A stretch of 64,000 nucleotides of DNA from Candidatus Babeliales bacterium (GTDB lineage: Bacteria; Babelota; Babeliae; Babelales; JBFXEV01). The stretch is from positions 1,606,807 to 1,670,806 of the forward strand of contig OY970310.1 of the NCBI GenBank assembly GCA_963716425.1, read 5' to 3'. Position numbers and translations under genes: made by a program. Shown one piece after another: positions 2,567 to 61,452 of this stretch. Within the stretch, counting starts at the first letter, position 1. Every line of letters starts with the position of its first letter. The notes under the pieces were generated by a model that saw nothing but the letters and a program-made list of their open reading frames with translations, was not told where the DNA came from and did no database searches.

Positions 2567-4117
2567 TTATAGCACCGATTCCGGTTCTTTTTTTTCCTCT
2601 GCTATGGTGATTCCTATAGAGGCATACAGTTCTTGTAAGATTGTTACTCTATGTTGTTCGATTTTCTCTGGGTCAAGAAGTGCTTTTATTTCAGGTGTTT
2701 CTGCACTATCGACCAAAGATTGTTTTTTAGCCAATCCATGATCATAACGAGGTCTCAGCACACATTTTTTTCTAGCTAGACTATTGATTGTTTCTAGTTG
2801 CGCTTCTGTTGCATTAAATATGACATAGGGAGCGATGCAGCTTCTGAGCACATCTTTTGGTAAGATCATATTCAAACGTTTATATGCCAACCAAACAAGT
2901 TTTAAGGCTGGTTTAATGCTAGGGCACGTAGTAAGGAGTGCGCGAGTCAATGGAAATGATTTTTTGTATATGGCCGCAAGATACAATGCATTTTTGTCTT
3001 GTTCATGAGCACAAAATGGGCTTGCGCCTTTGCGCAGTAATATTCTGCATGTTTCTAGAGAAGTGGGTTCACTCTCTTCGGCTATTAATACCGCTAGGCT
3101 AAAGGCTGTTTGGTGTTTATTATCTTGAATAGATAGTAACGATCGCACTAATTCAAGTTGCTCATGAGCATATGCTTGTGTATTCTTGAATGTACCATGT
3201 AAGACGCGAGGTAAAATAAGTGTTACGAGCATATCTTTGGGTATTTTGCCAAGAGGTGAATCTTTCCTAAATCTTTGAATTGCAAGGAGAGTTAATCCTC
3301 TCTGTAATTCTGGATACCTTTGATATCTTGATAGCATGATAGGTAAAGTTATTGCCGCTTCTCTATTTGGTTCCTGTTGTCCGTGTATAGGCCGCATAAG
3401 ATTAGATTCATCATAATAACGATAGGTTGAACATAGATCTGCAGTATATTGTGCAAGTCTATGCATAATAGTTTTACCAAGAGTATCCTGCGTTTCAAGC
3501 CGAGCACCAAAACCGAATGCTAGGTATAAACGTTCATCAATAGAGTTGTGATCAGTACGCAGAACTATTTTATCAAGAATAGTTTTTCCATGCAATTTGT
3601 TTTTATAAGGAACATCCAATTCTACTTGAGCTCCGCGTTGTCTTAATAACGTTAAGACCTTTTTGAGGTCCGGTATTTTTTTTATATTACCAAAAAGTAT
3701 GGCTTCTTGTGCTGGCGTTCTTGAAGCGCCGTTGAGTGCATCAACAGGGAGCGCCTTTACATCGAGGAGAAATTGGCAGAATGCGATATAGCCAGCTGAT
3801 GCTGCCTTATGTAAAAGATCTACCCTATCCTTATCACGTATCCAGAGCAGTTTACTTTCAGCTAACAACACAACAGAAGTATCAACGTCATGACCAGTTA
3901 TAATATCTTTAACCTTTTTTGAGCTTTTTTTAGTTCGAGTGTTTTCTAATGCTGGTTTGTAGAAAGCACTGGAAGTTCCTTTTAAATAAGCATCTTTGAG
4001 TTTCTCTGCATCTTCTTGACATTTTTCAATCAAAGTTCCCTTTGCAAGATCCATGGCATGGAACAGGTGCGTATTCAAGAAAAGCATAATAAGGCATAGT
4101 TTATATGTTAGTTTCAT
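2567..4117 (-). CDS. Exported ANK-repeat protein with C-terminal F-box-like module (full-length member of the 2567..5959 array)
   Basis: The likely start is the internal MKLTYKLCLIMLFLNTHLFHAM|DL; the ORF track extends 16 codons further, to 4165. ANK motifs: DLLHKAASAGYIAFCQFLL, RTPAQEAILFGN, NALYLAAIYK. F-box-like ILPKDVLRSCIAPYVIF. Tail LLDPEKIEQ...ELYASIGITIAEE. Confidence 0.75.
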   Translation of the reverse strand: MKLTYKLCLIMLFLNTHLFHAMDLAKGTLIEKCQEDAEKLKDAYLKGTSSAFYKPALENTRTKKSSKKVKDIITGHDVDTSVVLLAESKLLWIRDKDRVDLLHKAASAGYIAFCQFLLDVKALPVDALNGASRTPAQEAILFGNIKKIPDLKKVLTLLRQRGAQVELDVPYKNKLHGKTILDKIVLRTDHNSIDERLYLAFGFGARLETQDTLGKTIMHRLAQYTADLCSTYRYYDESNLMRPIHGQQEPNREAAITLPIMLSRYQRYPELQRGLTLLAIQRFRKDSPLGKIPKDMLVTLILPRVLHGTFKNTQAYAHEQLELVRSLLSIQDNKHQTAFSLAVLIAEESEPTSLETCRILLRKGASPFCAHEQDKNALYLAAIYKKSFPLTRALLTTCPSIKPALKLVWLAYKRLNMILPKDVLRSCIAPYVIFNATEAQLETINSLARKKCVLRPRYDHGLAKKQSLVDSAETPEIKALLDPEKIEQHRVTILQELYASIGITIAEEKKEPESVL

Positions 4118-4206
4118 CGTTTTTTTCTTCTCTTTAGATTTTTGGATTGTTTGCAGTTTGCGCATTGGCCAATGATTCTTCCTCAGTCATTTTTTGACCA
4201 TTCCAC

Positions 4207-5262
4207 TTAATAACGTAGATTAAATAGCAATGATCGCAATAGTTCAAGTTGTTGAAAATGTCCTTGAGTATTCTTGTATTTGCCATGCAAGATGTGAGGT
4301 AATATAAATGATATGAGGACATCTCTGGGTACCTTGCCAAGTAGTGAATTCTTTCTAAATCTTTGAAGTGCAAGGAGGATAACTCCTCTCTGCGATTCTA
4401 GATACTTTTGATATTCTATTACCATGGTATGTAGAATATCTGCCACTTGTGTATTTTTTTGAATATTATCATGATAGTCTTCATATTTGTTTGAACACTG
4501 TTCTGTAGTATGCTCTACAAGTCTATGCATTATAGTTTTACCAAGATCATCTTGCGTTTCAAGCTGAGCACCAAAAATGAATGCTATGCGTAAACGTTCA
4601 TTCATAGAATCGTGATCAGTGTGCAACACTATGCTATCAAGAACAGCTAGGCACATTTGCGCTCCATGTTGTCTTAACAATGTTAAGACCTTTCTGAGGT
4701 TTTGTATTTTTTTTATATGACCAAAAAGTATGGTTTCTTGAGCTGGCGTTCTTAAAGCGCTGTTGAGTGCATCAACCTGTGCGCCATAGTGCATCAAAAG
4801 CTTGCAGGTTTCAACATGTCCTTCAACTGCAGAGAGATGTAAAGGTGTGGAACATTGCTTATCTAATGCATCAACAGGGAATGCTTTTATTTCAAGTAAT
4901 AATTGGCAAAATGGTGTATAGCCGATTGATGCTGCCTTATGTAAAAGATGTGCCCTATCCTTCTTGCTTATCCAGAGCAGTTGACATTCAGCTAGTAACA
5001 CAATGCTAGTATCAATGTCATGATCAGCAAGGATATTCCTTACCTTTCTGGAGCTGTTTTTCTTCCAGCTGTTTTCTCGTGCGAGTTGGTAAAATGGGCT
5101 TGATTTTCCGTTTATATAGGCATCCTTGAGTTTTGCTGCATCTTCTTGATGCTTTTCGCCCAATTTTTCAAGTAAAGTTCCTTTTGAAAGCTCCATGGCA
5201 TGGAACAGGTGCATATTCAAAAGGAGTGTAACGAGGCACAGTTTATACGTTGGGTTTAGCAT
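4207..5262 (-). CDS. Exported ANK-repeat protein, C-terminally truncated paralog of 2567..4117
   Basis: Collinear with residues 1-~330 of 2567..4117 (MLNPTYKLCLVTLLLNMHLFHAM|EL ... ILPHILHGKYKNTQ). It stops just before the position where the paralog continues into the F-box-like module. Confidence 0.6.
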   Translation of the reverse strand: MLNPTYKLCLVTLLLNMHLFHAMELSKGTLLEKLGEKHQEDAAKLKDAYINGKSSPFYQLARENSWKKNSSRKVRNILADHDIDTSIVLLAECQLLWISKKDRAHLLHKAASIGYTPFCQLLLEIKAFPVDALDKQCSTPLHLSAVEGHVETCKLLMHYGAQVDALNSALRTPAQETILFGHIKKIQNLRKVLTLLRQHGAQMCLAVLDSIVLHTDHDSMNERLRIAFIFGAQLETQDDLGKTIMHRLVEHTTEQCSNKYEDYHDNIQKNTQVADILHTMVIEYQKYLESQRGVILLALQRFRKNSLLGKVPRDVLISFILPHILHGKYKNTQGHFQQLELLRSLLFNLRY

Positions 5263-5959
5263 TGTTCTTTTCTGCTATGGTAATGCCTATTGAAGCATAT
5301 AGTTCTTGTATGATTAATGGTCGTAGTTGTTCTATGTTCTTAGGATCAAGTAACTCTTGTAATTCTTTAGTTTTTACAAGGTCGCAAAGTCTTTTTTCTG
5401 TTTGCACAAGCACGTTTCTAGCTGCCATTGGATTTGGCCGATAGATTTTACTTTCTAGAATTTCTGTGAGTAGTGTCTTTACAACAGCAAGCTTGGTTTC
5501 TGTCTCATTAAAAATGATATATGGCACAATGCATTCGAGAAAAACATCTTTTGGAATCGTAATTTTCCATCGGCGACAAGACAATAAGAGTGTCTTTAAT
5601 TCCGGTTTAATGCTTGGGCAGGTCGTAAGCAGAATTCTTGTTAAAGGTGCAGATGCTTTGTTTACCGCTGCAAGATACAAGGGCGTTTGATCTTGCGTAT
5701 TTTTAAAAGCAATACTTGCCCCTTGTCTAATGAGTGATTTACATGTTTCTAAAGATGCGGGATCCGTTTTTTCAGCCAATATTATTGTTAAATGTAAACG
5801 TGTTTGCCCACAATTATTGGTAGCATCAATGTGAGGATCTGTAGGTAGTATCTGCGCAAGCGTCTCAAGTAAGTTGTTCTCACCAGTTGATATTAGTTTC
5901 ATTGCGTATAATGAGCTTTGTAAAAGACAACTCATAAGAATGAAATATATTTTGTGCAT
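5243..5959 (-). CDS. Exported protein equal to the C-terminal (F-box-like) half of the 2567..4117 family, with its own leader
   Basis: Leader MHKIYFILMSCLLQSSLYAM|KL. Then DPASLETCKSLIRQGAS...PLYLAAVNKASAPLTRILLTTCPSIKPELK...TIPKDVFLECIVPYIIF...LLDPKNIEQ...ELYASIGITIAEK, collinear with the last ~200 aa of 2567..4117. Overlaps the next gene by 20 nt. Confidence 0.65.
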   Translation of the reverse strand: MHKIYFILMSCLLQSSLYAMKLISTGENNLLETLAQILPTDPHIDATNNCGQTRLHLTIILAEKTDPASLETCKSLIRQGASIAFKNTQDQTPLYLAAVNKASAPLTRILLTTCPSIKPELKTLLLSCRRWKITIPKDVFLECIVPYIIFNETETKLAVVKTLLTEILESKIYRPNPMAARNVLVQTEKRLCDLVKTKELQELLDPKNIEQLRPLIIQELYASIGITIAEKNNAKPNV

Positions 5960-5965
5960 AGAGGT

Positions 5966-7384
5966 TTATATCCTAAAAAAGTGAGTAAATATATTGAACA
6001 ATGCGGTGCCACAGAAATAACTTGCTGCAAGATGGAGTATATAGCTGAATATCAAAGTAGTTGCCAGCAAAAAGCAAATCTTTTTGAGCGGATATCTAAT
6101 ATGGTATTTGCGATATACTGCATATCCCATGATTCCCATAGATAGCAACCGAACGCCATACAAGGCTATAATAAAAGTGATCAGATGTATATATCCGTAT
6201 GCCATTGCGCCAAAAATAATAGAAATATTTACGATGTAAAAAAGATAGGCGTAAGCAAGGTCGCTGTAATCTGCATGAACTTCAAGCATTCGTTCATAAG
6301 GTATGAACAGTAATTCCAGGAGCAATCCAATTGAAGTAATAAAAAAGAGATTAAAACCATAAGAAGACGTGCCGCAGCAAGAAACTTGGCATTGCATAAA
6401 CCACACAACACCAATTAAAGGAATTGCAAAGTAAGCAAATTTGGTTGCAAGCTTGGTGAACGCATTTTGAAATACGTGGCTCTCTGCATGGGCATTATGA
6501 GCATGCTTTAGGTAGGCAAATAGTGAAGTATCTGTTGTGCCAATAGTTCTGAAAATTAACCGCTGAAAAAGTAACGCACCATCTTGTGCGACTTTAAATA
6601 TATTACCTAAGGCGGGTCCTAAAAAATAGGTGACAAATGGTACGGTGATATTCCGCTCGGTAAGACTTTTAAGTATCGCAGCACCCCACATAAGCCCGGC
6701 GTGCTTAATAAATTGCAGGAGAAAGTCGTGCGATAGAGGTTCAAGTGCTTTGTTGGTATCAGGTAATCGTTTGTTTAAAAGTGCTGCGCTAAGGATTGCA
6801 CACATCAAGCTTGCAATTCCTTTGCCAAGCACTATATAAAAGACCATGCTCAGTGAGGGTGTAAAAATAAATGCTGCACCAATCACCAACACCATATACA
6901 CAAACTGAATTGTTGCCAGTAGTTTATTATATGTCTTTTGCCAGAGATATGCATGAAATATAGTTTGGAAGAGCATTTCAAAGCCGTGGCCAAAAAAGAG
7001 TAGTGCACTTGCAAAAAGAAGAGCATTATTCATGGGCAGATTAACTTGGTAAGCATAACGTGTGACAAGCCACAATGCAAAAGGACAGGCTATGGTTATT
7101 ATAACGGTATACGCGCTTACAAGTAAGAAAGTGTATTGTTTGCGATTGCCTTCTATAATAAGCGGGAAAAAAGTGGGTATGGTTTTTCGCATGCCCATAT
7201 CTGCCCAAACGAGTATGAGATATATCAAGCTATTAATACCTGTCCATACAGCAAAATCGATAGTGCTTAATTGTTTGAATAATACAAACGTGAGTAGTGT
7301 GCTTGTGAGTTTAAAAACAGCATAAGAGAAGGCATTCCAGCTTATGGCGGTATTAATGCGGCTATATAATTCATCAATATGCAT
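5966..7384 (-). CDS. Polytopic membrane protein, MOP/Wzx-like flippase family (tentative)
   Basis: 472 aa, about 12-14 hydrophobic spans. The N-terminus (NTAISWNAFSYAVFKLTSTLLTFVLFKQLSTIDFAVWTGINSLIYLILVWADMGMRKTI) resembles polysaccharide/lipid-II flippase starts. Not verified by search. Confidence 0.45.
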   Translation of the reverse strand: MHIDELYSRINTAISWNAFSYAVFKLTSTLLTFVLFKQLSTIDFAVWTGINSLIYLILVWADMGMRKTIPTFFPLIIEGNRKQYTFLLVSAYTVIITIACPFALWLVTRYAYQVNLPMNNALLFASALLFFGHGFEMLFQTIFHAYLWQKTYNKLLATIQFVYMVLVIGAAFIFTPSLSMVFYIVLGKGIASLMCAILSAALLNKRLPDTNKALEPLSHDFLLQFIKHAGLMWGAAILKSLTERNITVPFVTYFLGPALGNIFKVAQDGALLFQRLIFRTIGTTDTSLFAYLKHAHNAHAESHVFQNAFTKLATKFAYFAIPLIGVVWFMQCQVSCCGTSSYGFNLFFITSIGLLLELLFIPYERMLEVHADYSDLAYAYLFYIVNISIIFGAMAYGYIHLITFIIALYGVRLLSMGIMGYAVYRKYHIRYPLKKICFLLATTLIFSYILHLAASYFCGTALFNIFTHFFRI

Positions 7385-7395
7385 GGGAGCCTAGT

Positions 7396-8403
7396 TTATT
7401 TTCTTTTTTTGTCTTGGTCGTAGACTTTTTTTGCCAGAGAGTTACAGATACAGGTTGCAAGGCTTACGCATGCAATATACCCCCACCCGATCCAAAATTC
7501 TAACGTGTCAACGTGCTGTTTTGATAAGGCTTTGTCATCATCATCGGTCATGCATATGTGCTTGGGAATCGTAGGAAATTCATTCAAGATTTCCATTAAA
7601 TGGATTCTTGTTCTTTGGGGAATTTTGCATAAGTTTGCCTCAATTCCAATAGGCCGCGCATGCTCGGGCATCTTTTGGAGTAATCGTTGCACAATGCGCA
7701 GGCGCTGAGATATTGTGTCTCTAGAGTCGCCTGGCTCAAATCCATGTAATGCTGCAAAAATTGGTAAGTTCCTATTATTGTTCAAGCGCGTTGTTGAGGC
7801 ATTATGCATTAATAGCAAGTCTACAATTACACTCTTGCCGGTATACGCTGCCCTGTGGAGCGGAAAGCAACCTGACTTCTCATCAGGTGCAACACCAGCT
7901 TCTAGCAGATTGCTTACTCGTATGGGGTCACCTTGGTCTGTGTCAATGGCTTTAATTAATGCTGATTGCATGTCTGGAGACTTACTTGATAACCGTGTTC
8001 GTATGTAGCGTATAAGTTCAATATGTCCATTATCGATCGCATCTTCGAAAAGGCAATCTATGCGATCCAGATGATCTGGATCAAGCATTTCAAGCAAGAG
8101 TGGAATTATCTTTCCGGTTACCTTTTGGGGTCTTTGGGCAGTTTGGCACAAAGTTGTTGCAATGCATGCTGCATATTCCGCTGGTGAATACGTTCCCTGC
8201 CAGTTTGAATAATATGCCATTACTTGATTTGGGTCGCCATTGGCAAGTGCAACATCAAGGGGGAAACTGGGTGTATATGTTGGGCAAGGTATTACGCCAT
8301 GCTGCACGTTGGGCAATGTGTGGCCAGTAGTATGCACTCGTTGCATACATAAAGCAGTGTGGTATGAGCTTACGAGTAAGAAAGTTAATAATGTATTCTG
8401 CAT
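7396..8403 (-). CDS. Leader-bearing ANK protein with C-terminal TM anchor and basic tail (family member 1 of 3)
   Basis: Leader MQNTLLTFLLVSSYHTALCM|QR. YYSNWQGTYSPAEY, DRIDCLFEDAIDNGHIELIRYI, FPLHRAAYTGKSVIVDLLLMHNAS. CMTDDDD, then the TM FWIGWGYIACVSLATCICNSL, then KKVYDQDKKRK. Confidence 0.75.
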   Translation of the reverse strand: MQNTLLTFLLVSSYHTALCMQRVHTTGHTLPNVQHGVIPCPTYTPSFPLDVALANGDPNQVMAYYSNWQGTYSPAEYAACIATTLCQTAQRPQKVTGKIIPLLLEMLDPDHLDRIDCLFEDAIDNGHIELIRYIRTRLSSKSPDMQSALIKAIDTDQGDPIRVSNLLEAGVAPDEKSGCFPLHRAAYTGKSVIVDLLLMHNASTTRLNNNRNLPIFAALHGFEPGDSRDTISQRLRIVQRLLQKMPEHARPIGIEANLCKIPQRTRIHLMEILNEFPTIPKHICMTDDDDKALSKQHVDTLEFWIGWGYIACVSLATCICNSLAKKVYDQDKKRK

Positions 8404-8512
8404 ATTTGTTCTTTGAGTGTTATTCTGAGTTGCATTTATTGTACAAGTTTTGTATCATCATCCCCATTACTCACTAAAGGGGTGATGACATACATAGTAA
8501 ATCCTTTTTTTA

Positions 8513-9685
8513 TTACTGATTTTTCTTTTGAAATTCTTTTCGCAATGCATCTCTATGAATGAACAGGTCGATTGCAACTTTTGCTACCCATGAACAACAA
8601 ATAATAGACGCGCCAAGGGCAAAGCAAGATTCTTCCTGCCGTATTATTGGAACCTCATCACTCATACATGGTCTTTGCATGAGTCTGTTGCTTAATAGCC
8701 CTATAACTTTTGACTGCGTCTCTTGGGATACAGGAGCAATTATTTTTTGCACATGTTTCAGTGAAGGAATTGTTTCAATTGGCATTGCATTGAGCACAGT
8801 GCGCAGGATGTACAAACGCCTCCTGAGCGCTGATGTATCACCTGCATCTTTGGGGTTTGTAAAGCCCATGAGTGCTATATCAAGTGGCGATTCACCCATA
8901 CAAGTTGTTAAGGAGACGGATGCGCCATGTTCAAGTAGTAAGCGCACGGCATTTGCATTAGCGCGAAAGATTGCAGTGTGTAATGGATACTGAACGCCAT
9001 GGGCTATTTCCATTTCTTCATCCGTTTGCCTTATTACCACTTCTTTCTTTCGATCCCCAACGCCCACATCCGGATTAACGCCAGCTTTGAGTAAGGTACT
9101 AAGAGCGGTATCTTGGCGGTGAATGATTGCATCCACAAGTTCCCACGCCATAGGTTCGGGCGCATGCGGATTAAGATAGGTAAGTACTTCCACGTGGCCA
9201 TTGGCAATAGCGTTTTTTCGAACGCAGTCAGGTTGTTCAATCTCACTAAAAGTTACTTTTTCAAGAAGAAAACGAGCAACGGGAGCAGTAGTAGCAGCGG
9301 GGAAACGTGTTATATGATCTAATAATAGAGCCACATCTCTACGATAACAGTCCCAAGGGCTAAAATATTTTTGCCATGAATTAAAATATGATTGAACTAC
9401 CGTAAGATTGCCTTGTTCGGCAGCCACAACTACAGGATCTTTTTGCGGTGATGGTACATTTGTGCAACAGGTAAGATTTCGTGGATCATGAACAACAGTT
9501 GTTTTGCTTGGGTCCAAACCACACACATCAAGTTTATTACTATCGCTTGGTCTTGGAGTTCTTATTATGTAGCCATCTGTTTGTAGAGAGAGTTTTGGCT
9601 GAGTATACGGCTGACCTTTCGGGAGCATCGCATGAGAGCAAGGTATGCAAAGAGTGAGTGCGATCAAAAGTGAGATTTTATACAT
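8513..9685 (-). CDS. Leader-bearing ANK protein with C-terminal TM anchor and basic tail (member 2 of 3)
   Basis: Leader MYKISLLIALTLCIPCSHAM|LP. YFNSWQKYFSPWDC, NAIANGHVEVLTYL, YPLHTAIFRANANAVRLLLEHGAS. CMSDEVP, then the TM CFALGASIICCSWVAKVAIDLFI, then RKEFQKKNQ. Confidence 0.75.
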   Translation of the reverse strand: MYKISLLIALTLCIPCSHAMLPKGQPYTQPKLSLQTDGYIIRTPRPSDSNKLDVCGLDPSKTTVVHDPRNLTCCTNVPSPQKDPVVVAAEQGNLTVVQSYFNSWQKYFSPWDCYRRDVALLLDHITRFPAATTAPVARFLLEKVTFSEIEQPDCVRKNAIANGHVEVLTYLNPHAPEPMAWELVDAIIHRQDTALSTLLKAGVNPDVGVGDRKKEVVIRQTDEEMEIAHGVQYPLHTAIFRANANAVRLLLEHGASVSLTTCMGESPLDIALMGFTNPKDAGDTSALRRRLYILRTVLNAMPIETIPSLKHVQKIIAPVSQETQSKVIGLLSNRLMQRPCMSDEVPIIRQEESCFALGASIICCSWVAKVAIDLFIHRDALRKEFQKKNQ

Positions 9686-9707
9686 AGTAACCCTTTTTTA
9701 GTTATGT

Positions 9708-10934
9708 CTATTTTGTTTTTCTCTGTACTTTCACCGTAATGGGTGCAGCTTTTTGCTTCTTGGGTTCTTTTTCTTTTGCCGTTTTACAACATTTTTTATG
9801 TATGCATATGCATGTGGCTGCACCCACTGCTGAAAGTCCGATTGAAATTTGCGTTAATTTTCTATCCAGTTCTTCAAACTGCTCAGAAGTGAGCGACACT
9901 ACCTCGTCTGTCATACGCACTCGAGCAGGTGTTTGGGGTAAAAAAGACTGGAGAAGATTCCTAACTCGTCCTCGTGCGCTTGGCGTTAAATTGAATGATT
10001 CTGTTTGAATAGGCAGCGGTCTCATATCTGCGGGCATTGCCTCAAGTAAACGCCGCACGATATACAGTCTATTTTTGGTTATTGATTCAGTATCTTTGTC
10101 ACTAAATCCTTGTAATGCCGCAAAAAGAGGTGTTTGGTGGTAATGGTCTAAACGTGTTACATTCGCGTTATGCGTAAGAAGTAGATTTACTGTTTCAACC
10201 TGTCCTAGATGTGCTGCCATATGGAGTGGGTAGCGGCCATATCTATATTCTTCAAAAGCAAGTTTTGCATCATCATGTAGCACCACTTGTGCTTGGTCTT
10301 GGTTGCCAATGCCAATGTTTGGATCTATTCCTGCTTGTAAAAGGGCATCTACTTTATGGGGTTTATTTTCGCTTATGGCTTCTACAAGCGCCCATTCGGT
10401 AAATGGATAGGTAAATGAACGTTTGATATATTTGATAAGTTCGGTATGTCCCTTATCTACCTTGTCTACAGCTGCATCAAGAAGGCAATCAACACGATCT
10501 ACAAAAGTGGGATCTAACTTTGAAAGAAGGAAATCTATAATGATGGTTGTTTGCGGCGTTGAAGGTAATTGAGCGGTCTGCTTCAAGCTTTGGGCAATAC
10601 TTCTTTGATAATCAGAAAGAAGATAAGAACCGCGCCAATTTGAATAGTAATCTATAACGTGGCGTGCATCACCAAAGGAAATTGCAGTTGCTACGGGATA
10701 GTCGACCGCATGTCCTTTGCAAGTGCGGGGAAATGGGCGATCATCAGTAATAAGTTCAGTATTTTCGGGTAATTTGAGTGGGATCGCATGACCGTTTTTT
10801 GACTGTAACATGCCGATATCTCGATAATAGGTAGTAGTGCCAGAAAGAGGTGTTGGAGGTAACACTATTTGCATGCCAAAACTTAGAGTGCCAGATAAAT
10901 ATATGCATAAAAGAGCTACAAGTTTACCGTTCAT
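9708..10934 (-). CDS. Leader-bearing ANK protein with C-terminal TM anchor and basic tail (member 3 of 3)
   Basis: The preferred start is the internal MNGKLVALLCIYLSGTLSFGM|QI, with AGGA upstream; the ORF track extends to 11039. YYSNWRGSYLLSDY, DKGHTELIKYI, YPLHMAAHLGQVETVNLLLTHNAN. RMTDEVV ... ISIGLSAVGAATCICI, then a Lys-rich tail. Confidence 0.7.
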   Translation of the reverse strand: MNGKLVALLCIYLSGTLSFGMQIVLPPTPLSGTTTYYRDIGMLQSKNGHAIPLKLPENTELITDDRPFPRTCKGHAVDYPVATAISFGDARHVIDYYSNWRGSYLLSDYQRSIAQSLKQTAQLPSTPQTTIIIDFLLSKLDPTFVDRVDCLLDAAVDKVDKGHTELIKYIKRSFTYPFTEWALVEAISENKPHKVDALLQAGIDPNIGIGNQDQAQVVLHDDAKLAFEEYRYGRYPLHMAAHLGQVETVNLLLTHNANVTRLDHYHQTPLFAALQGFSDKDTESITKNRLYIVRRLLEAMPADMRPLPIQTESFNLTPSARGRVRNLLQSFLPQTPARVRMTDEVVSLTSEQFEELDRKLTQISIGLSAVGAATCICIHKKCCKTAKEKEPKKQKAAPITVKVQRKTK

Positions 10935-11078
10935 GAAATCCTGTGGTGTTATGAAGGAGTTGCAAAAAGTGTAGTATAAAAGCTCTTTAAACGCAATATG
11001 CTTACATCTCTTTTTTTGTGTGATAACTGTGTGGTACAACTAAGGTAGAAAAATGGCTAATTACTATAAGGGCAGACG

Positions 11079-11807
11079 ATGAAATACATATTAACATTTG
11101 GATTGCTGATCAGTACAGCATCACATGCACTAGAACCTGCAATGGTCAAACCGGATGAAGACTTTAATGTAGGGGAAGTAATTGTTCGGTTAGATGAGCA
11201 TATGACCAATGTAGAAACATGGTATCAGACAAGTAAGCACTGTGCTAAAAAAACAATGCGCGTTAAACAATTTGATATGGAGTTGTTGCGATCTATAGTG
11301 CAAGTAACACATCCAATAATGATTGCTTGTTTTGATGCCATGGAACATGAGGAAAGTCTTGAGCCATTTTTTGTGCTTTGGAGTAATTTTAAGAGAGAGT
11401 ATATGCAATCAGCACAAGACCAATTATTGTGCAAAGAAATAGCATTTCTTGTTATGCATCTTTATAGCAGCATGCTTGGGTCTTTACAACGCACGGGCAC
11501 TCGCGTAAACGTGGCACAAATGCTTGAATTATATCATATTATTGCAGCATTACCTATCTATAAATTGCTTGCTTTACTTGATAGTATTGCACGGCAGATA
11601 ATAACCATGTTGGATCAAACATATCATGACGAAACAAGTTTTTTTGTGTGGTTGTGGCATAATTGGTGGGTGCCCCCTACAATTATTTCAAACACGGTCA
11701 GCTCACTCGTAGATGGTATTACCTCTATTGTAACGTCAGAAGAGCCTCAAGAAGCGGGTGATGCAGATGACGATGACAAAAAAAGCTTGAGTAGCTGCGC
11801 TCTCTAA
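11079..11807 (+). CDS. Lineage-specific exported/membrane protein, single-module member of the family at 40326..42637
   Basis: Leader MKYILTFGLLISTASHA. Shares EPFFVLWSNFKREY...LCKEIAFLVMHLYSSML, LELYHIIAALPIYKLLALLD and WLWHNWWVPPTII with the two-module proteins at 40326..41621 and 41636..42637. Acidic tail. Confidence 0.7.
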   Translation: MKYILTFGLLISTASHALEPAMVKPDEDFNVGEVIVRLDEHMTNVETWYQTSKHCAKKTMRVKQFDMELLRSIVQVTHPIMIACFDAMEHEESLEPFFVLWSNFKREYMQSAQDQLLCKEIAFLVMHLYSSMLGSLQRTGTRVNVAQMLELYHIIAALPIYKLLALLDSIARQIITMLDQTYHDETSFFVWLWHNWWVPPTIISNTVSSLVDGITSIVTSEEPQEAGDADDDDKKSLSSCAL

Positions 11808-21611: not shown

Positions 21612-22433
21612 ATGCATTCACTCATTCTATTTATTCTTCTATTCTGTTCATTCTACCAATATGCCATGGATGTTCCATCTCAACAAGCTGCTGCTGCTCA
21701 AGCTGGCGCAGAAGATAGTGAAACGTTATTTGGATATATTTATAAAGGTTGGGAAAATTTTTTTGAGCGCAAATTGGATAATGAAAAAATTCCCATAGAG
21801 AGCTGTGACGAACGGGGTTCTACCTTGTTACATGTAGCATCTGCGCAGGCCCAACCAAAAATAGTGAGAATATTATTAGCTCGTGGTGCCAATGTGCATG
21901 CAGTTTCTCGTAACACAGCAACTCCGCCTTTATATGAGGCGGTGAATGGCCATTCTGGAGCTCCGCAAGTGGTTGAACAATTATTAGTACACGGGGCTGA
22001 CCCATTTTGTGAAGGACAGTATTATAAAATAACTCCCTTATATTTGGCAGCAGTAGGAGGCTATATACCAATTGTGCGACTAATCCTTATTAAATCACGT
22101 TATCCAATTGAGCATAAAATTTCTGAAAGTGAAAATTTAGAAGAGGCAGTTAAGCGTATTACTTGGGAGCGAGTACAGAATGGAAAGAAACTGCTTGCAA
22201 TGCAAGATCCTTTAAATACATGTACAGCACGCCAAAAAGTAGAGATAGATTTGAGAGTATTATCTTTAAAACAAAAACAGCAAGAATTACAAGACTACGA
22301 AATCGAACGGAAAAAAAATTTTCTAAAACTTCTTCCGTTACTTGTTCTTGAATTGTTTGAAAAAAATTTTGAACAAGAAATTCAAGACGATGTTAGAAAA
22401 ATTTTAGCCGAGTTACAAAAAAAACACAAATAA
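21612..22433 (+). CDS. Exported ANK-repeat protein
   Basis: Leader MHSLILFILLFCSFYQYAM|DV. ANK motifs: GSTLLHVASAQAQPKIVRILLARGANVHA, TPLYLAAVGGYIPIVRLIL. Confidence 0.8.
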   Translation: MHSLILFILLFCSFYQYAMDVPSQQAAAAQAGAEDSETLFGYIYKGWENFFERKLDNEKIPIESCDERGSTLLHVASAQAQPKIVRILLARGANVHAVSRNTATPPLYEAVNGHSGAPQVVEQLLVHGADPFCEGQYYKITPLYLAAVGGYIPIVRLILIKSRYPIEHKISESENLEEAVKRITWERVQNGKKLLAMQDPLNTCTARQKVEIDLRVLSLKQKQQELQDYEIERKKNFLKLLPLLVLELFEKNFEQEIQDDVRKILAELQKKHK

Positions 22434-24580: not shown

Positions 24581-25303
24581 ATGCAAAAAATATTAATTTT
24601 AATACTTGTTACAGTGCTTGCCAATCCAAGTGCTTTTGGCATGGATAACGCGCCTAAAAGAAATAATAAGGGCCTTGCTCAAGGATTTAAAATTAAGCTG
24701 TCTCTACAAGTTGATGGTGTAGCTCGCGATTTAACAAAAAGTGTTTTTGTGCTGGCGCCTGAAGGAATGAGTAAGGGCAAAGCAGAAACTTATTTTAGGA
24801 AAAAAGAAAAGGAATTATTCCCCAAAGTAATGCAGTGTGTTGATGCATGTATTGCACAGATCAATGTGGCTCCTGTTGTAGCCCCTGGCCAACCCAGTCT
24901 TTGGGAAATGCTCCTTGATCCCAAGAGCATATTTGAGTTCAAAGAGGGTTCACCGAGCATAGCGCTCAGACGAGATATAGGTGGTAATCCAAAAGCATGG
25001 TACTTTACCGAACTATTTAAAATAGAGGTTGATGAGCAACAACCAGATCAAAGTAGTTGTTCGGCATTAATGGTCGGTTGTCATCATGATCAGCAAGGTG
25101 TGCATGAAGCTGTTTTATTAACGCAATTTGAAGAATTTTATACAAATCATTCGGGAGTTAAAAAAGCTGATGTTAAAGAGCTGTGCAAAGGTCAACCAGA
25201 AGAAGACTATGATACTCTACGCAGAGTTAAAGTGGTTCAAATGGCAACTTTTGCGTTGTTAAACCAAGCAAAATATCAGCAAATTTTTCTTAAGAGAAAA
25301 TAG
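24581..25303 (+). CDS. Exported hypothetical protein (intact paralog of the split gene at 23007..23784)
   Basis: Leader MQKILILILVTVLANPSAFGM|DN. Collinear with both split ORFs upstream. Confidence 0.7.
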   Translation: MQKILILILVTVLANPSAFGMDNAPKRNNKGLAQGFKIKLSLQVDGVARDLTKSVFVLAPEGMSKGKAETYFRKKEKELFPKVMQCVDACIAQINVAPVVAPGQPSLWEMLLDPKSIFEFKEGSPSIALRRDIGGNPKAWYFTELFKIEVDEQQPDQSSCSALMVGCHHDQQGVHEAVLLTQFEEFYTNHSGVKKADVKELCKGQPEEDYDTLRRVKVVQMATFALLNQAKYQQIFLKRK

Positions 25304-27383: not shown

Positions 27384-28571
27384 CTACTTTTTTTTTGAAC
27401 TTGATAAAGTTGCTTCAAGTATATTGAGGTTCTTTTGTAAGATATCAAGAGATTGTGCAAGTGGTGAGGCCCCCAGTAAAGAAGGCTGCGTGGATGTTTG
27501 TGTAGTTGGTTGTGGAGCCACTGTTGCTTGCACTGCTTTTTTTTGTAATTCAGCTCGCACTTCCATAAGAATACGGCCTAACCAATTTTGTCCTAGATAG
27601 TCGTCTCCTGCACCAAAAAAGGAATCATTCTTGCCAGCATCTTCTACTAATATAGCATTGCCTGTTTGAAGGAGCATTGTGGCCAATTGAGGATACTGAG
27701 CAAATTTTTCATATATTGCTTTGCGCATGTTATCAAGATTTACATCATACCAATCTGGGCGTAAAGATTGCTTATTTTTATTTGCAAAATCAAAAGCTTT
27801 GCGAGGTGCGCTGCCCGAGGAATCAGATTTGAATTTTTGTATGATATTTTGGAGGTTGGGATCAGTGAATTTAGAAGCTTGGTAGTATTGCTCGGTAGTT
27901 GGCCATACTTTGCCATCTACTGTAATATCTTGCTCATAGAAATTAGTAAATTCATAATAGGGTTTATTCGATTGATAGAAATAAATGGCACCTGGAATAT
28001 TTTGCCATGAAGTAGCTTGAGGAACGTATTGTTTCCAAGGATCAGGGGTTATTGCTTTTGATTTAGGCTGCTCTAGAGCACTTACTTTTTTGGGCCAGAT
28101 AGTTTGAAACACATGTAAAAATTCTTTGGCAACAATTGTATTTGCATTTGGTTTTGGTTTTACCGGACCTTTTTGGAGTAGTTGATTTACAGGAATCCAT
28201 ACAAAGTCGGAGACTTGTGGCGTACGTCCATTAGTGTAAAGATCATTGCCACGAATAAAAATAGGCACAGGAACAATGTAATAAGTGAGATTATACATTT
28301 CTTCCATGGGCATGCCTTGCACATTTATTACATACATGCCATTTGTTCCGGCACTCAGAGCTTTCTGAGCAGCGGCATCTGCACTTTCACCATGTTGGAT
28401 TGGGGCTCGGAACGGCCACCACTGACCATTTTGTAGCCCTAGTAACACAGACCATTCATTATTTTGGGGATTTTTAGATACAGGAATGGCAACCGCATAT
28501 TCTACTGCACAGACAGTGCCTATTTGAAAGCTCATAAAACTTATTATTAATAGTGCTATTTTGTTCTTCAT
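27384..28571 (-). CDS. Exported two-domain protein: degenerate Nudix-like fold plus NADAR (YbiA/DUF1768) domain
   Basis: Leader MKNKIALLIISFMSFQIGTVCA. SVLLGLQNGQWWPFRAPIQHGESADAAAQKALSAGTNG follows the Nudix-box spacing, but REx2EE is replaced by KALSAG. NADAR: GAIYFYQSNKPYYEFTNFY...VDGKVWPTTEQYYQASKF...LVEDAGKNDSFFGAGDDYLGQNWLGRILMEVRAEL. Q/T/S/P-rich tail. Confidence 0.85.
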   Translation of the reverse strand: MKNKIALLIISFMSFQIGTVCAVEYAVAIPVSKNPQNNEWSVLLGLQNGQWWPFRAPIQHGESADAAAQKALSAGTNGMYVINVQGMPMEEMYNLTYYIVPVPIFIRGNDLYTNGRTPQVSDFVWIPVNQLLQKGPVKPKPNANTIVAKEFLHVFQTIWPKKVSALEQPKSKAITPDPWKQYVPQATSWQNIPGAIYFYQSNKPYYEFTNFYEQDITVDGKVWPTTEQYYQASKFTDPNLQNIIQKFKSDSSGSAPRKAFDFANKNKQSLRPDWYDVNLDNMRKAIYEKFAQYPQLATMLLQTGNAILVEDAGKNDSFFGAGDDYLGQNWLGRILMEVRAELQKKAVQATVAPQPTTQTSTQPSLLGASPLAQSLDILQKNLNILEATLSSSKKK

Positions 28572-29334: not shown

Positions 29335-30300
29335 CTATCTTACACTACGTAAAGACTTCTTTGGTTGTACTGTAGATTTTACTTGTTGAACTTGCGGCTT
29401 GGATTGCGACGTTGGCTTAGTTTGAGCTTGGCTGCTTGCTTGAGCAGCCGGTTGTGGTGTAATTTGAGCTGCTTGAGTTTGTGTTTGTGTACGAGAAGAA
29501 GGTGTTGCTGGTTGGCCAGATGTTGCAGCGGTAGTGGCTGACTGTGTAGCAGCTGGAGCCGGTATTGCTGCGATAGCTGATGCAGCTTGCGTAAGCGATG
29601 ACAACGCTGAAGATGCTTGAGTAGGCGATGATGTTGCTTGAGTTGTTGTTGCCTGTTTATTTTTTGCACGAGACTCAGGAGTTATTGTTTGATGCTTATA
29701 AGATGTTGATTGCTTGCGCAGGTCATCACGTAACGCCATAAGCAAGCGTCCATACCAATTTTTACCTTTATAATCTGTGCCAGTACCATACAACGTGTCA
29801 TGTGCGTCAGTTGTTGCATACACCAAAACTGCATTGCCAGTATTCAAAAGCTTTTCACGCAACTCTCTGTGTTGATCAAATGCTGCTCGCAGAGCTTTCC
29901 TTTTAATATTAAGGTTTGTGGTAGGCCAATCTTTACGCACCTGAGCTTGGTGCGTATGAGCAAATTCGAGTGCTTTGTGCGCAGCGCTGCCTAATGCATC
30001 TGAGGTAAAGTTTCTTATAGTTTCTTGGAGAGCACTATCTGTGAATTTCATAGCTTGGTAATATTGCTCAATGGTAGGCCATACTTTACCATCAATAAGA
30101 ACATTAACCTGCCATTGCGGTATAAATTCAGCATACGGTTTTTTAATGTCATAAAAATATATGGCACCCGGAATGTTGGCCCAAGAACGTGCTTTTGAAG
30201 CGTAAGTTCTCCACGGCTCTGTTTCTAGAGTGGTAGGTGCAGCGTGGGCTGCGCAATAAAGAGTAATGAGCAATAATGAAAATATGTGTTTTATAGCCAT
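29335..30300 (-). CDS. Exported NADAR (YbiA/DUF1768) domain protein with long A/T/S/Q/P low-complexity tail
   Basis: The preferred start is ATG at 30300, preceded by GAGAGG: MAIKHIFSLLLITLYCAAHA|AP. GAIYFYDIKKPYAEFIPQW...IDGKVWPTIEQYYQAMKF...YGTGTDYKGKNWYGRLLMALRDDL. It ends with ~120 aa of ATSSPTQASS.../TQTQTQAAQ repeats. Confidence 0.85.
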   Translation of the reverse strand: MAIKHIFSLLLITLYCAAHAAPTTLETEPWRTYASKARSWANIPGAIYFYDIKKPYAEFIPQWQVNVLIDGKVWPTIEQYYQAMKFTDSALQETIRNFTSDALGSAAHKALEFAHTHQAQVRKDWPTTNLNIKRKALRAAFDQHRELREKLLNTGNAVLVYATTDAHDTLYGTGTDYKGKNWYGRLLMALRDDLRKQSTSYKHQTITPESRAKNKQATTTQATSSPTQASSALSSLTQAASAIAAIPAPAATQSATTAATSGQPATPSSRTQTQTQAAQITPQPAAQASSQAQTKPTSQSKPQVQQVKSTVQPKKSLRSVR

Positions 30301-33551: not shown

Positions 33552-34496
33552 CTACTTGCCAAATTCTCTATTAAAGAGTTTCTCTAAGATTGTTGAACCA
33601 TGTCGAGAAATCTTTTGTTCTAATAGTACGTTCTTTGGTATTGAACTGTCAAGCGCTAATATGTAATGTCTTTGCGTTTGTTCATTAACAAGAATTTTCG
33701 CAGCATCAGCATGGCCATTTTGAATTGCAAGATCATATGCTAATAAGTTGCTATCAGTAAGAATATCAGAACGGGCACCACGTTGTAAGAGTAGAGTAAT
33801 TCCATAGAGGTTACCTGATGATGCGGCATCATGGAGTGGCGTATGTCCTAAAAAATCTTGCGCATTTACTTCTGCTTGTAATTTCAATAATTCTTCTGTT
33901 GATGAGTGCGCGTGATGTTGTACTGCAAGATGAAGGGGGGAATTACCTAGGGTATCGGTAGCTTGTAGACATGCTCCATGGTCAACAAGTAACCGTATGT
34001 TTGCTGAGGCTTTTTCATCATTACTCAGGGCGGCTATATGAAGAGACGTATTGCCTTCAGAGTCTTGTTTATCAATATCGCCATTTTTTGAAAGGAAAAG
34101 TGTAAGAAGTTCTAAAGCATGATTTTTAACTGCTTCATGCATAGCGGTCGTGGAAATACCATCTTCATCAAACACTGGGCAATAAGGATCTGCCCCATGC
34201 TTGAGTAAAAATCTTACCAGAGTGGGTCTATTGGATTGAGTGCAATTAATGAAGAATCGTTGTCTGCCGGATGCCATCACTCCTAGAGCGATACCACCTA
34301 AGGTAAGAGATCCCATAATTACGCCTACGGTTAAACTTTCACCAACGTTAATGCTAGTTCCTGTATGTATTGCAGCATTAACATAGGGTGAGGTGCGTTG
34401 GCATATGAGTGCTGGTTCAATGAGGCAAGACAATTCCATAGTATAGAGTTGAGTGCTAGAAAAGAGTATTATACCGAAAACTATATTTTTGATCAT
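33552..34496 (-). CDS. Leader-bearing ANK-repeat protein with an additional internal hydrophobic segment
   Basis: Leader MIKNIVFGIILFSSTQLYTM|EL. Hydrophobic segment LTVGVIMGSLTLGGIALGVMASG. At least 5 ANK repeats (GNTSLHIAALSNDEK, GNSPLHLAVQHHAHS, GHTPLHDAASSGNLYGITLLLQRGA). Confidence 0.8.
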   Translation of the reverse strand: MIKNIVFGIILFSSTQLYTMELSCLIEPALICQRTSPYVNAAIHTGTSINVGESLTVGVIMGSLTLGGIALGVMASGRQRFFINCTQSNRPTLVRFLLKHGADPYCPVFDEDGISTTAMHEAVKNHALELLTLFLSKNGDIDKQDSEGNTSLHIAALSNDEKASANIRLLVDHGACLQATDTLGNSPLHLAVQHHAHSSTEELLKLQAEVNAQDFLGHTPLHDAASSGNLYGITLLLQRGARSDILTDSNLLAYDLAIQNGHADAAKILVNEQTQRHYILALDSSIPKNVLLEQKISRHGSTILEKLFNREFGK

Positions 34497-57294: not shown

Positions 57295-58053
57295 ATGAAA
57301 AGCATGACTAACCTGATTTTCTCATGTGTCATCTCCCTCACTCTTAGTAACGCGCATGGCACGCTTAATGCCATGGAGAAATTTCGCTCATCACCATTAA
57401 AACGCTCAAGGGTTGAAAATGGTGCGCAAGTTGTTCCTTCAAAAGTAGATTATATAGCTGCTCTTGACGCAGCGCTTTTAACGGTTGATGATGATGGTAC
57501 CACGGTGTTGCATGCGGCAGCGGGTGATGGCAATCTTGTAATGTGCCGTGACCTCTTGGCGCGGGGTGCAAGCCCGTTGTGGCAAAATAAATTAGGCCTA
57601 TCGCCAATGCATTGTGCAGTAGCCGGTAATCATTATGAAGTAGTGCAGCAACTTCTTGATGGTATCCCAAACGGAGCAAAGTGTGAGCGAGTAGTTGCGA
57701 CATTGTGTATACTGCGACGCTATCACATTCCACTGGACCTTAGACTAACAGTACTTTCATATCTGCCTGATCTTATTGCCGCATATCCTGGGCTATGCAA
57801 GCGATTAGTTCCAAACTATATTACTGAAGAGCAATTACGTAGTGCACACTACGCTTCTCAAGTAAAACTTCTTAAACTGCAAGACAAAGAAGGCCGTTCA
57901 GCTTATAGCATTGCAAAAAATAATAGAAATGGTTTTATGGCACGCATGACCAATCCTTCAAATAGAATGGCAGCATGTAAAGAAAAAATCACTCACTTGT
58001 TAGAAGATACTACTCCTGCTGACTCAAAAGAAAATAAAGAATCATCATTATGA
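57295..58053 (+). CDS. Leader-bearing ANK protein with F-box-like module (array member 1)
   Basis: Leader ...LTLSNAHGTLNAM|EK. ANK: GTTVLHAAAGDGNLVMCRDLLARGASPLWQNKLGLSPMHCAVAGNHYEVVQQLL. F-box-like: VVATLCILRRYHIPLDLRLTVLSYLPDLI. Confidence 0.75.
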   Translation: MKSMTNLIFSCVISLTLSNAHGTLNAMEKFRSSPLKRSRVENGAQVVPSKVDYIAALDAALLTVDDDGTTVLHAAAGDGNLVMCRDLLARGASPLWQNKLGLSPMHCAVAGNHYEVVQQLLDGIPNGAKCERVVATLCILRRYHIPLDLRLTVLSYLPDLIAAYPGLCKRLVPNYITEEQLRSAHYASQVKLLKLQDKEGRSAYSIAKNNRNGFMARMTNPSNRMAACKEKITHLLEDTTPADSKENKESSL

Positions 58054-59060: not shown

Positions 59061-59063
59061 TTA

Positions 59064-60281: not shown

Positions 60282-60283
60282 AC

Positions 60284-61426: not shown

Positions 61427-61452
61427 CCATGATTCTATGAAATTATAAAACT

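Follow-up and report, generated by a model that had tools for sequence, protein, structure and literature searches.

Where do the ankyrin repeat (ANK) proteins that Dependentiae export end up? The question is raised by a locus in a 64,000-nucleotide stretch of DNA (the window) from Candidatus Babeliales (Dependentiae, TM6; contig OY970310.1, positions 1,606,807 to 1,670,806). Cultured Dependentiae are obligate intracellular parasites of protists. The phylum gives up to a tenth of its genes to leader-bearing ANK proteins, and the one export route recognised for them is Sec followed by type II secretion. The locus holds three co-directional open reading frames (ORFs) on the minus strand, encoding paralogs that we named A (7396-8403, 335 amino acids (aa)), B (8513-9685, 390 aa) and C (9708-10934, 408 aa when counted from the ATG at 10934); the ORF list gives them the same coordinates as an initial annotation of this DNA. 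In all three proteins a leader of 19-20 residues is followed, in this order, by a disordered linker, an ANK solenoid with about seven repeats, a hinge of acidic character, a hydrophobic helix rich in Cys and a tail rich in Lys. In the most parsimonious reading, which we hold tentatively and at a little under an even chance, A, B and C are Sec-exported type-I inner-membrane proteins with the ANK domain in the periplasm and the tail in the cytoplasm.

The initial annotation described A, B and C as paralogs that share a series of sequence blocks. All of these blocks are present, and the three proteins can be aligned over their whole length with pairwise identities of 33-39%. The first block reads YYSNWQGTYS in A, YFNSWQKYFS in B and YYSNWRGSYL in C; the second reads, in the same order, DRIDC..NGHIELIRYI, EQPDC..NGHVEVLTYL and DRVDC..KGHTELIKYI, and the third LLEAGVAPD, LLKAGVNPD and LLQAGIDPN. 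PLH.A is also present, and the C-terminal Cys blocks are ATCICN, IICCSW and ATCICIHKKCC. C deviates twice from the annotated blocks, with KGH for NGH and PN for PD. For comparison we used loci of related genomes (L002, L003 and L004) and a set of collected relatives of the family (P-numbers). B has orthologs at L002 2013-3200 and L004 8784-9986, the orthologs of C include P0002-P0004, P0022, P0025, P0026 and P0028, and a residue-identical copy of protein A is found on a metagenome contig in ENA.

Pfam sees only one or two ANK repeats in the middle of each protein, for example at residues 122-214 of A and 232-273 of B. The Ank_2 scores (40.6 bits, 3.9e-10, for A; 32.1 bits for B; 39.9 bits for C; cut-off 27.3) place all three in the ANK clan. 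An AlphaFold2 model of C, built from an eight-sequence alignment, is disordered and of low confidence over residues 1-69, which comprise the leader and a Pro-rich linker. From about residue 70 to 335 the model is all alpha-helical with a pLDDT of 80-96, and the helices are paired over residues 81-329. Residues 350-382 form one long helix of low confidence, and the tail is disordered. A Foldseek search of the PDB with this model returned only ANK proteins (gankyrin, ankyrin-1, DARPins, KANK and Bcl-3), aligned over 220-295 columns. On the evidence of the model, the cores of A, B and C are one stacked helix-turn-helix ANK solenoid of about seven repeats, encoded on the minus strand at 7555-8265 in A (aa 47-283, aligned to the confidently modelled core of C), 8669-9433 in B (aa 85-339, from family alignments) and 9921-10700 in C (aa 79-338; the confident fold begins at about aa 70 and takes in Cys72). 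The N-terminal blocks had been listed apart from the ANK repeats; in the model they are divergent ANK repeats of this same solenoid, and a separate non-ANK N-terminal domain is excluded by the model and the Foldseek search together.

Cys72 of C lies about nine residues before the first ANK helix, in a segment that is confidently placed in the model from residue 71 onward, and Cys150 lies in the 'DC' motif that opens the third repeat. Both cysteines are present in 17 members of the family and both are lacking in four, which belong to two separate subfamilies; no member has just one of them. Such joint presence and absence fits a disulfide, and hence folding in an oxidising compartment, suggesting that a Cys72-Cys150 bond may pin the N-terminal extension to the solenoid. 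The hinge follows the solenoid, 15-30 residues before the helix (aa 284-290 in A, 340-346 in B and 340-345 in C), with the pattern P-x-[RH]-hydrophobic-x-M-[TS]-[DE]-[DE]. It reads CMTDD in A (extended there to CMTDDDD), CMSDE in B and RMTDE in C, that is, a Met with acidic residues behind it. Wherever a member possesses this region the Met is present without exception, and this includes X_L004 and P0140, which lack the transmembrane (TM) helix. The layout of the hinge (small or basic residue, Met, [TS], [DE], [DE]) resembles that of the junction behind the leader (small residue, Met, [DE]).

The leaders are encoded at 8347-8403 in A (aa 1-19, MQNTLLTFLLVSSYHTALC), 9629-9685 in B (aa 1-19, MYKISLLIALTLCIPCSHA; KD12 2.49) and 10875-10934 in C (aa 1-20, MNGKLVALLCIYLSGTLSFG; KD12 2.08), all on the minus strand, and are followed by Met20, Met20 and Met21, respectively; Met21 of C is invariant in the family alignments. 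Each leader has a short n-region and an h-region of 10-13 residues. The leader of A, with A at -3 and C at -1, fits the von Heijne rule, and the Met is preceded by S-H-A in B and S-F-G in C. Across the family, position -1 is occupied by A, G or C, and position -3 by a small or aliphatic residue, in all 19 of the 19 leader-bearing members. The leaders thus have the n-h-c layout and the -3/-1 residues of a Sec signal peptide recognised by signal peptidase I, and are probably cleaved. Lipoprotein processing by signal peptidase II was rejected, as no leader matches the lipobox [LVI][ASTVI][GAS]C: A ends in T-A-L-C and the C protein of L003 in S-I-C, in which the -1 residue is not G, A or S, and B and C have no Cys at +1.

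Several observations indicate that the leader is translated. AGGA or AAGGG stands 6-9 nt before the leader ATG of B and C (AAGGG 7 nt 5' of the ATG in B), and the AGGA before C is kept in four genomes within a non-coding region whose indels are not multiples of three; the Shine-Dalgarno (SD) sequence of A itself is weak. All orthologs retain the leader ORF and its hydrophobic character, whereas the internal, post-leader Met has no SD-like motif in front of it in the sequences of the family genes. A start at the post-leader Met, with the leader as an artefact, was rejected on these grounds. A longer, TTG-started ORF for C, reaching to 11039, was also rejected: the DNA upstream is conserved but non-coding, and the conserved SD sequence stands before the ATG at 10934. 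Given the phylum, the leader is real but not special.

The Met behind the leader is a wider habit of the clade. Among 62 leader-like N-termini from the window and from L002, L003 and L004, 51 have a small residue followed by Met and usually then by D, E or Q (..A-MD.., ..A-ME.., ..G-MQ.., with the dash at the junction), and most of these proteins are ANK proteins. Examples in the window lie at 483-1088, 1113-2447, 4207-5262, 5243-5959, 21612-22433, 24581-25303, 33552-34496, 50236-51291 and 57295-62691. The Met is invariant in the alignments of the ANK-TM family and is missing from one of its 19 leader-bearing members (P0121). Gene callers often begin genes at this Met. The leaders of the more distant Dependentiae loci L006 and L007 end in an ordinary AxA-[ADES] junction with no Met. 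As a matter of speculation, the post-leader Met might be a retained ancestral start codon, or it might have been selected because it gives a eukaryote-like N-terminus that is safe from N-degron recognition. Ordinary export leaders with no such Met are carried by a pyridine-nucleotide-disulfide oxidoreductase (FAD/NAD-binding; 38833-40356) and by NADAR-domain proteins (27384-28571 and 29335-30300); the export of these normally cytoplasmic enzyme families is odd.

At the other end of the proteins, the hydrophobic segment lies at 7432-7503 in A (aa 301-324, LEFWIGWGYIACVSLATCICNSLA; three Cys), 8555-8629 in B (aa 353-377, SCFALGASIICCSWVAKVAIDLFIH) and 9801-9857 in C (aa 360-378, LTQISIGLSAVGAATCICI), again on the minus strand. 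The KD19 values are 1.46, 1.92 and 1.73, and delta-G is +0.14 kcal/mol for A, +0.90 for B (residues 353-372) and +1.69 for C, as given by a re-implementation of the position-dependent Hessa predictor, whose absolute values are approximate. The segment of B is the weakest TM candidate of the three, with K369 and D373 in its C-terminal part; its ortholog in L004 has an uncharged segment of 22 residues. On the same scale the family spans -2.2 to +1.7 kcal/mol and the orthologs -2.2 to +1.4, whereas the TM-less members score +3.4 to +6.8; the helices of the flippase encoded next to A span -2.6 to +1.9. Apart from the family and multi-span proteins, none of the leader-bearing ORFs of the window ends with a hydrophobic segment in its last 45 residues or so.

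The tails that follow are basic. They are encoded at 7399-7431 in A (aa 325-335, KKVYDQDKKRK), 8516-8554 in B (aa 378-390, RDALRKEFQKKNQ) and 9711-9800 in C (aa 379-408, HKKCCKTAKEKEPKKQKAAPITVKVQRKTK; Cys-rich and polybasic). Lys and Arg make up 6 of 14 residues in A, 5 of 18 in B and 12 of 30 in C, and the net charge is about +4, +2 (for the 18-residue tail) and +10, respectively. The A- and C-type orthologs carry +5 to +10 and the B-type orthologs 0, and the C-type tails, at 27-43 residues, hold 9-14 K/R. In A, B and C the flank on the C-terminal side of the helix is therefore net positive, as the positive-inside rule expects.

The initial annotation also called the helix Cys-rich, and this is borne out by the counts. 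Cys accounts for 14.4% of anchor residues (the helix and the next six residues). The corresponding values are 1.6% for the window proteins as a whole, 4.2% for leaders, and 1.5% both for polytopic TM helices and for the remainder of the family proteins. The enrichment, about 9-fold, is found at the tail-proximal end of the helix and just beyond it, and a K-C-C-K-type motif right after the helix is conserved in the C-type orthologs. That Cys-richness is a general habit of the hydrophobic segments of this organism is only partly true, given the 4.2% of the leaders.

In place of the TM helix, further leader-ANK proteins of these arrays have conserved motifs of another kind in their C-terminal part, namely ..ELYASIGITIAE.. 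near the C-terminus and ..[LM][LF][DN]P[KE]TW... They lie at 5243-5959, 2567-4165, 58050-59060, 59064-60281, 60260-61426 and 61453-62691 in the window, and elsewhere at L002 6421-9747, L003 16926-17594 and L004 11421-12296. This suggests that the ANK proteins of the clade are built from a leader, an ANK domain and an exchangeable C-terminal module.

How widely is this architecture distributed? Four relatives of C came out of a word-indexed search of 5.8 billion proteins. HMMER, run exhaustively on 1.84 billion representatives, yielded about 12 full-length members (representatives at 50% identity); the remaining matches were giant generic ANK proteins that match one repeat repeatedly. Among 185,579 species-representative genomes one related locus was found, in a Candidatus Babeliales genome. 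The ANK-TM family is confined to one Babeliales (Dependentiae) clade. A viral or giant-virus origin was rejected, with no relatives found in viral contigs.

Four genomes, those of the window and of L002, L003 and L004, share synteny at this locus, in the order carD and miaA, a divergent gene for a 242-aa leader protein, the ANK family, a 472-aa membrane protein and further leader-ANK genes. The number of family genes differs. C, B and A are found in the window, C, B, a short form (S) and A in L002, and only C and S in L003; L004 holds C, B and a TM-less relative further along, so that A is missing from both L003 and L004. S is intact at L002 3214-3888, where it encodes a leader, three ANK repeats, a TM helix and CC. 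In the window, 8436-8495 (minus strand) forms a direct repeat with the start region of B and aligns to the B-S junction of L002; it represents the ribosome-binding site and first codons of S. The comparison indicates that the S gene was deleted in the lineage of the window, leaving a 60-nt relic in the B-A gap. Judged from the sequences, the family is young, fast-evolving and in flux.

In spite of this pace, the order of leader, ANK domain, single C-terminal hydrophobic helix and basic tail, which the initial annotation had pointed out, recurs in orthologs of four genomes. The helix is kept by 17 of the 21 collected members. Leader and helix stay hydrophobic though they are only 10-47% identical in most ortholog pairs (20-40% for the leader alone). 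Signal peptides and single-pass anchors typically evolve in this way, with hydrophobicity kept while the sequence drifts. Because the architecture recurs in the orthologs of four genomes, the anchor is retained in most members and Cys is enriched in the anchor, the shared architecture is not due to chance.

What would these parts do together? As a type-I envelope protein, each paralog would be directed to Sec by its leader, which signal peptidase I would cut just before the invariant Met. The Pro-rich disordered linker and the ANK solenoid would be threaded into the periplasm, where the solenoid would fold, probably held by the Cys72-Cys150 disulfide (C numbering). The moderately hydrophobic Cys-rich helix and the Lys-rich tail would then act as a stop-transfer signal, which in its classical form is a hydrophobic helix with a basic cluster right behind it. 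The end state, at least as a biogenesis intermediate, would be a type-I bitopic inner-membrane protein with its basic, Cys-rich tail in the bacterial cytoplasm. Much like the periplasmic ANK proteins RARP-1, AnkB and Bd3460, it could serve as a scaffold that binds proteins while tethered to the inner membrane on its outer face, and might hold or organise other exported proteins. We favour this reading because of the positive-inside rule, by which such basic tails stay on the cytoplasmic side of an energised bacterial inner membrane, because 9-14 K/R are hard to export against the membrane potential, because of the probable disulfide, and because periplasmic ANK proteins have precedents. The type-I topology proposed in the initial annotation thus survives as the best reading: the -3/-1 residues, the AGGA kept in four genomes and the basic tail behind the helix speak for it, and the part that is weakened is the helix itself, which is only marginally hydrophobic.

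This last point is the first of several that weigh against an envelope protein. The delta-G values of A, B and C compare with -1.2 to -3.0 kcal/mol for four single-span anchors of the same window, and an additive Hessa scale gives the same ordering (+2.2 to +3.0 for A, B and C versus -1.4 to +0.9 for five such anchors). Stop-transfer may therefore be inefficient, as has been described for secreted membrane effectors. The 9-fold Cys enrichment and the KCCK motif are left unexplained by a role on the cytoplasmic face of the bacterium, and the short forms carry neutral or acidic tails (0 to -2). The pace of evolution is effector-like, with B and C orthologs about 40% identical compared with 60-72% for neighbouring genes; copies have been gained and lost between genomes (A absent from L003 and L004, S only a relic in the window); and the genes lie within a variable island rich in exported ANK, WD40 and LRR proteins.

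These observations can be turned around if the marginally hydrophobic helix slips through SecYEG without halting transfer and the proteins leave the bacterium, by Sec and then type II secretion or in outer-membrane vesicles. The C-terminal module would then fix the ANK domain to a membrane of the host, either as a tail-anchor-like signal for the peroxisome or mitochondrion or as a membrane-binding module of host S-acylated Cys and polybasic residues. We consider such an effector unlikely, though it deserves a serious hearing. Leader-ANK proteins are regarded as secreted host effectors in this phylum, in which type II is the sole secretion system found and vesicle budding has been observed. The delta-G of the helices is in or near the moderate range, about 0 to +1 kcal/mol, in which secreted membrane effectors thought to escape capture by the inner membrane are reported to lie. 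Under the published rule for tail-anchored proteins, a moderately hydrophobic TM domain with a highly charged tail goes to peroxisomes and one with a less charged tail to mitochondria, and the Kyte-Doolittle values of 1.4-1.9 with tails of +4 to +10 (A and C; +2 in B) match it; Chromulinavorax, of the same phylum, remodels the host mitochondrion. Cys residues concentrated at and just past the end of the helix, fast evolution with copy turnover, and the different C-terminal motifs of other leader-ANK proteins in the array, which suggest exchangeable address modules, would all suit an effector, and the post-leader Met would, speculatively, leave it with a eukaryote-like, N-degron-safe N-terminus. 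Set against this, the basic cluster after the helix has the form of a stop-transfer signal, the proton-motive force opposes export of such tails, and polybasic tails of 30-43 residues with 9-14 K/R would be hard to translocate post-translationally. The probable disulfide conflicts with a function in the reducing cytosol, Babela grows in a vacuole so that the first membrane surface open to a secreted protein would be the lumenal one, and we know of no Sec/type II substrate that keeps an uncleaved TM helix.

The host-membrane idea of the initial annotation joined tail-anchored insertion to palmitoylation of the juxtamembrane cysteines, and these require opposite topologies and are mutually exclusive. 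Tail-anchored insertion would leave the cysteines and the tail in an organelle lumen, beyond the cytosolic DHHC enzymes, so that palmitoylation would be impossible; palmitoylation needs the tail in the host cytosol, which would put the ANK domain in a lumen. The tail-anchor idea is further weakened by the C-type tails, whose length and charge make them poor candidates for post-translational translocation. A fuller version of the effector proposal, in which a phylum without type III, IV or VI secretion delivers effectors through Sec/type II or vesicles, equipped with the retained Met and a self-contained C-terminal address made up of a marginally hydrophobic helix able to get past the translocon, a strongly basic tail and host-S-acylated Cys, so as to place an ANK scaffold on peroxisome- or mitochondrion-type membranes, seems to us somewhat less probable still. 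If true, it would be a new bacterial way to deliver membrane-anchored effectors without a dedicated injection machine.

The anchor might also be temporary. By analogy with GlyGly-CTERM/rhombosortase substrates, of which VesB is reportedly one, an anchored precursor could be cut at the acidic hinge or within the helix, which would free a soluble ANK domain for type II secretion, a system conserved in the phylum. The invariance of the hinge Met and the conservation of the acidic residues after it would fit a cleavage site, as would the likeness of the hinge to the post-leader junction, and an N-terminal signal peptide with a C-terminus of motif, TM helix and basic cluster is the general layout of bacterial C-terminal sorting signals. 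We nevertheless think this distinctly improbable. The hinge motif is not adjacent to the helix, and the TM-less members X_L004 and P0140 keep it too, there simply as the boundary of a domain; the known CTERM sorting-domain models gave no match in an NCBIfam scan at E up to 1; and no candidate processing enzyme is encoded near the genes, where the co-directional 472-aa protein is a housekeeping flippase. Least probable of all is that the C-terminal segment does not span a membrane, being instead an amphipathic, oligomerising or metal-binding Cys-rich helix, or that the leader is not a working export signal. The marginal hydrophobicity, with K369 and D373 inside the segment of B, the low AlphaFold2 confidence of the helix and the possibility that the Cys clusters bind metal point that way, and gene callers start P0002, P0003, P0004 and P0022 at the post-leader Met. 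However, 17 members have uncharged stretches of 19-24 residues, some of them clearly hydrophobic (-2.2, in S of L002, -1.8 and -1.1 kcal/mol), and leader ORF, hydrophobicity and upstream SD are conserved in all orthologs, with none of the last before the internal Met.

The three genes are closely spaced, with gaps of 22 bp between C and B, 109 bp between B and A, and 11 bp between A and the next gene. A simple promoter and terminator scan found no terminator-like site in the C-B and B-A gaps, and fewer promoter-like sites there than in shuffled sequence. Because of the short gaps and the lack of terminator-like sites between them, A, B and C probably form one transcription unit, which runs on into the gene for the 472-aa membrane protein and further leader-ANK genes. 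Upstream of C, the region between its ATG and the divergent 242-aa gene (10935-11078) is conserved, with a mean column identity of 77% in an alignment of four genomes, while the C proteins there are only 40% identical. It outdoes the flanking coding DNA in conservation and includes the invariant blocks GCTTTTATACTACACTTTTTGCAA and AAAGAGATG. This region probably holds promoters and the 5' untranslated region, as a promoter, operator or 5' untranslated element that the divergent genes share; an Rfam scan of the whole window gave no match.

The 242-aa leader-bearing protein itself (11079-11807; also L003 9068-9793 and L004 6629-7378) is 60-63% identical between genomes, has no family match, and is always encoded divergently from a C-type ANK gene. 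On the near-identical ENA contig L001, the C gene (614-1696, 99% identical to C of the window) was called from a different N-terminus, MRSHSNYPKILNLLLMIAHFPASCKG.., which implies that the leader is lost through a frameshift in the linker. P0024, a B variant of 330 aa, stops before the TM helix. Both cases reflect either assembly errors or strain-level decay of the family.

The 472-aa polytopic protein (5966-7384) is encoded co-directionally, 11 bp downstream of A, and is syntenic in the four genomes; identical copies occur on other contigs. It has no match in Pfam, NCBIfam or the sequences of the PDB. Its homologs, which are widespread in Dependentiae, carry Polysacc_synt domains, and one has the NCBI name 'lipopolysaccharide biosynthesis protein', so that its sequence relationships identify it as a divergent MOP/Wzx-type flippase. 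In distant Dependentiae (L005, L006 and L007) the flippase lies within a conserved backbone, carD-miaA ... flippase-dnaK-ychF, and inside this backbone lies a variable island, made up of genes for ANK, WD40, LRR and phospholipase proteins. A role as a dedicated sortase- or insertase-like partner of the ANK-TM family was rejected, since homologs of the flippase are widespread in Dependentiae and belong to this housekeeping backbone.

The built-in anchor makes the family a tractable handle on where the exported ANK proteins of Dependentiae end up. If the helix stops in the inner membrane, some 'effector' ankyrins are really envelope proteins, and A, B and C may simply be an envelope protein family. 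Either outcome, a stop in the inner membrane or targeting to a host membrane, would alter our understanding of the large ANK repertoires found in amoeba-associated bacteria. Three concrete features are open to testing, namely the Cys pair, the anchor with its many Cys and the post-leader Met specific to the clade, and we found none of them in the literature searched.

How do A, B and C compare with known systems? The initial annotation regarded the display of ANK domains outside the bacterial cytoplasm as unusual, which overstates the case. Signal peptides are predicted for 79 of the 126 ANK proteins of Babela massiliensis, and for 78% of the ANK proteins and 44% of all proteins of Chromulinavorax destructans; in Dependentiae type II is the only secretion system detected, with no type III or IV on record. 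Like A, B and C, these leader-ANK proteins have a Sec-type leader followed by ANK repeats, are clustered in ANK-rich islands and are presumed to be exported by Sec and then type II secretion or vesicles. To this theme A, B and C add the conserved Cys-rich hydrophobic helix, the basic tail and the Cys pair of the ANK domain. The literature on Babela and Chromulinavorax treats ANK proteins as secreted and does not mention a C-terminally anchored one. The Dot/Icm Ank effector families of Legionella and Coxiella were rejected as relatives (best NCBIfam score 30.8 bits against a cut-off of 550), and only type II is reported in the phylum.

RARP-1 of Rickettsia parkeri, AnkB of Pseudomonas aeruginosa and Bd3460 of Bdellovibrio are periplasmic ANK proteins, and RARP-1 was first taken for a secreted effector and later placed in the periplasm. 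As in our reading of A, B and C as envelope proteins, their ANK domain is exported by Sec and works outside the bacterial cytoplasm, and RARP-1 illustrates that a protein of an obligate intracellular bacterium may have a leader and ANK repeats without being a host effector. They have no sequence kinship with A, B and C beyond the ANK repeat, and the KatB or peptidoglycan-hydrolase context of the periplasmic ANK proteins has no counterpart at this locus. To our knowledge, none of the three ends in a TM helix that is joined to a Cys cluster and a polybasic tail. A conserved gene of phage WO encodes an ANK protein which, like A, B and C, has ANK repeats followed by a single C-terminal TM segment in an obligate intracellular bacterium. 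Unlike A, B and C, it belongs to a phage lysis module, and the likeness rests on architecture. We know of no N-terminal signal peptide in the phage protein, whose orientation would be tail-anchored, with the N-terminus inside.

Transmembrane effectors of type III and IV systems and eukaryotic tail-anchored proteins share with A, B and C a single, moderately hydrophobic TM segment near the C-terminus. The definition of a tail-anchored protein asks for a single TM domain within the last 65-70 residues, and the helices of the family, which end 11-43 residues from the C-terminus, have this position. They differ in the Sec leader, as tail-anchored proteins have no signal sequence, and in tails that are longer and more basic than the short, translocatable tails typical of tail anchors (27-43 residues in the C-type). 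The tripartite sorting signals LPXTG, PEP-CTERM, GlyGly-CTERM and MYXO-CTERM likewise combine a signal peptide with a C-terminal TM helix and a basic cluster. In the family alignment no signature motif abutting the helix is conserved, in line with the lack of a CTERM model match, and among the neighbouring genes, to which the search was confined, there is no sortase, exosortase or rhombosortase partner, the flippase being the sole polytopic neighbour. The combination of a leader, an ANK solenoid with a Cys pair, a Cys-rich marginal helix and a polybasic tail was not found described in the literature searched. ANK proteins of this phylum bear leaders as a rule, and there are known cases of periplasmic ANK proteins elsewhere; the new element in A, B and C is the anchor.

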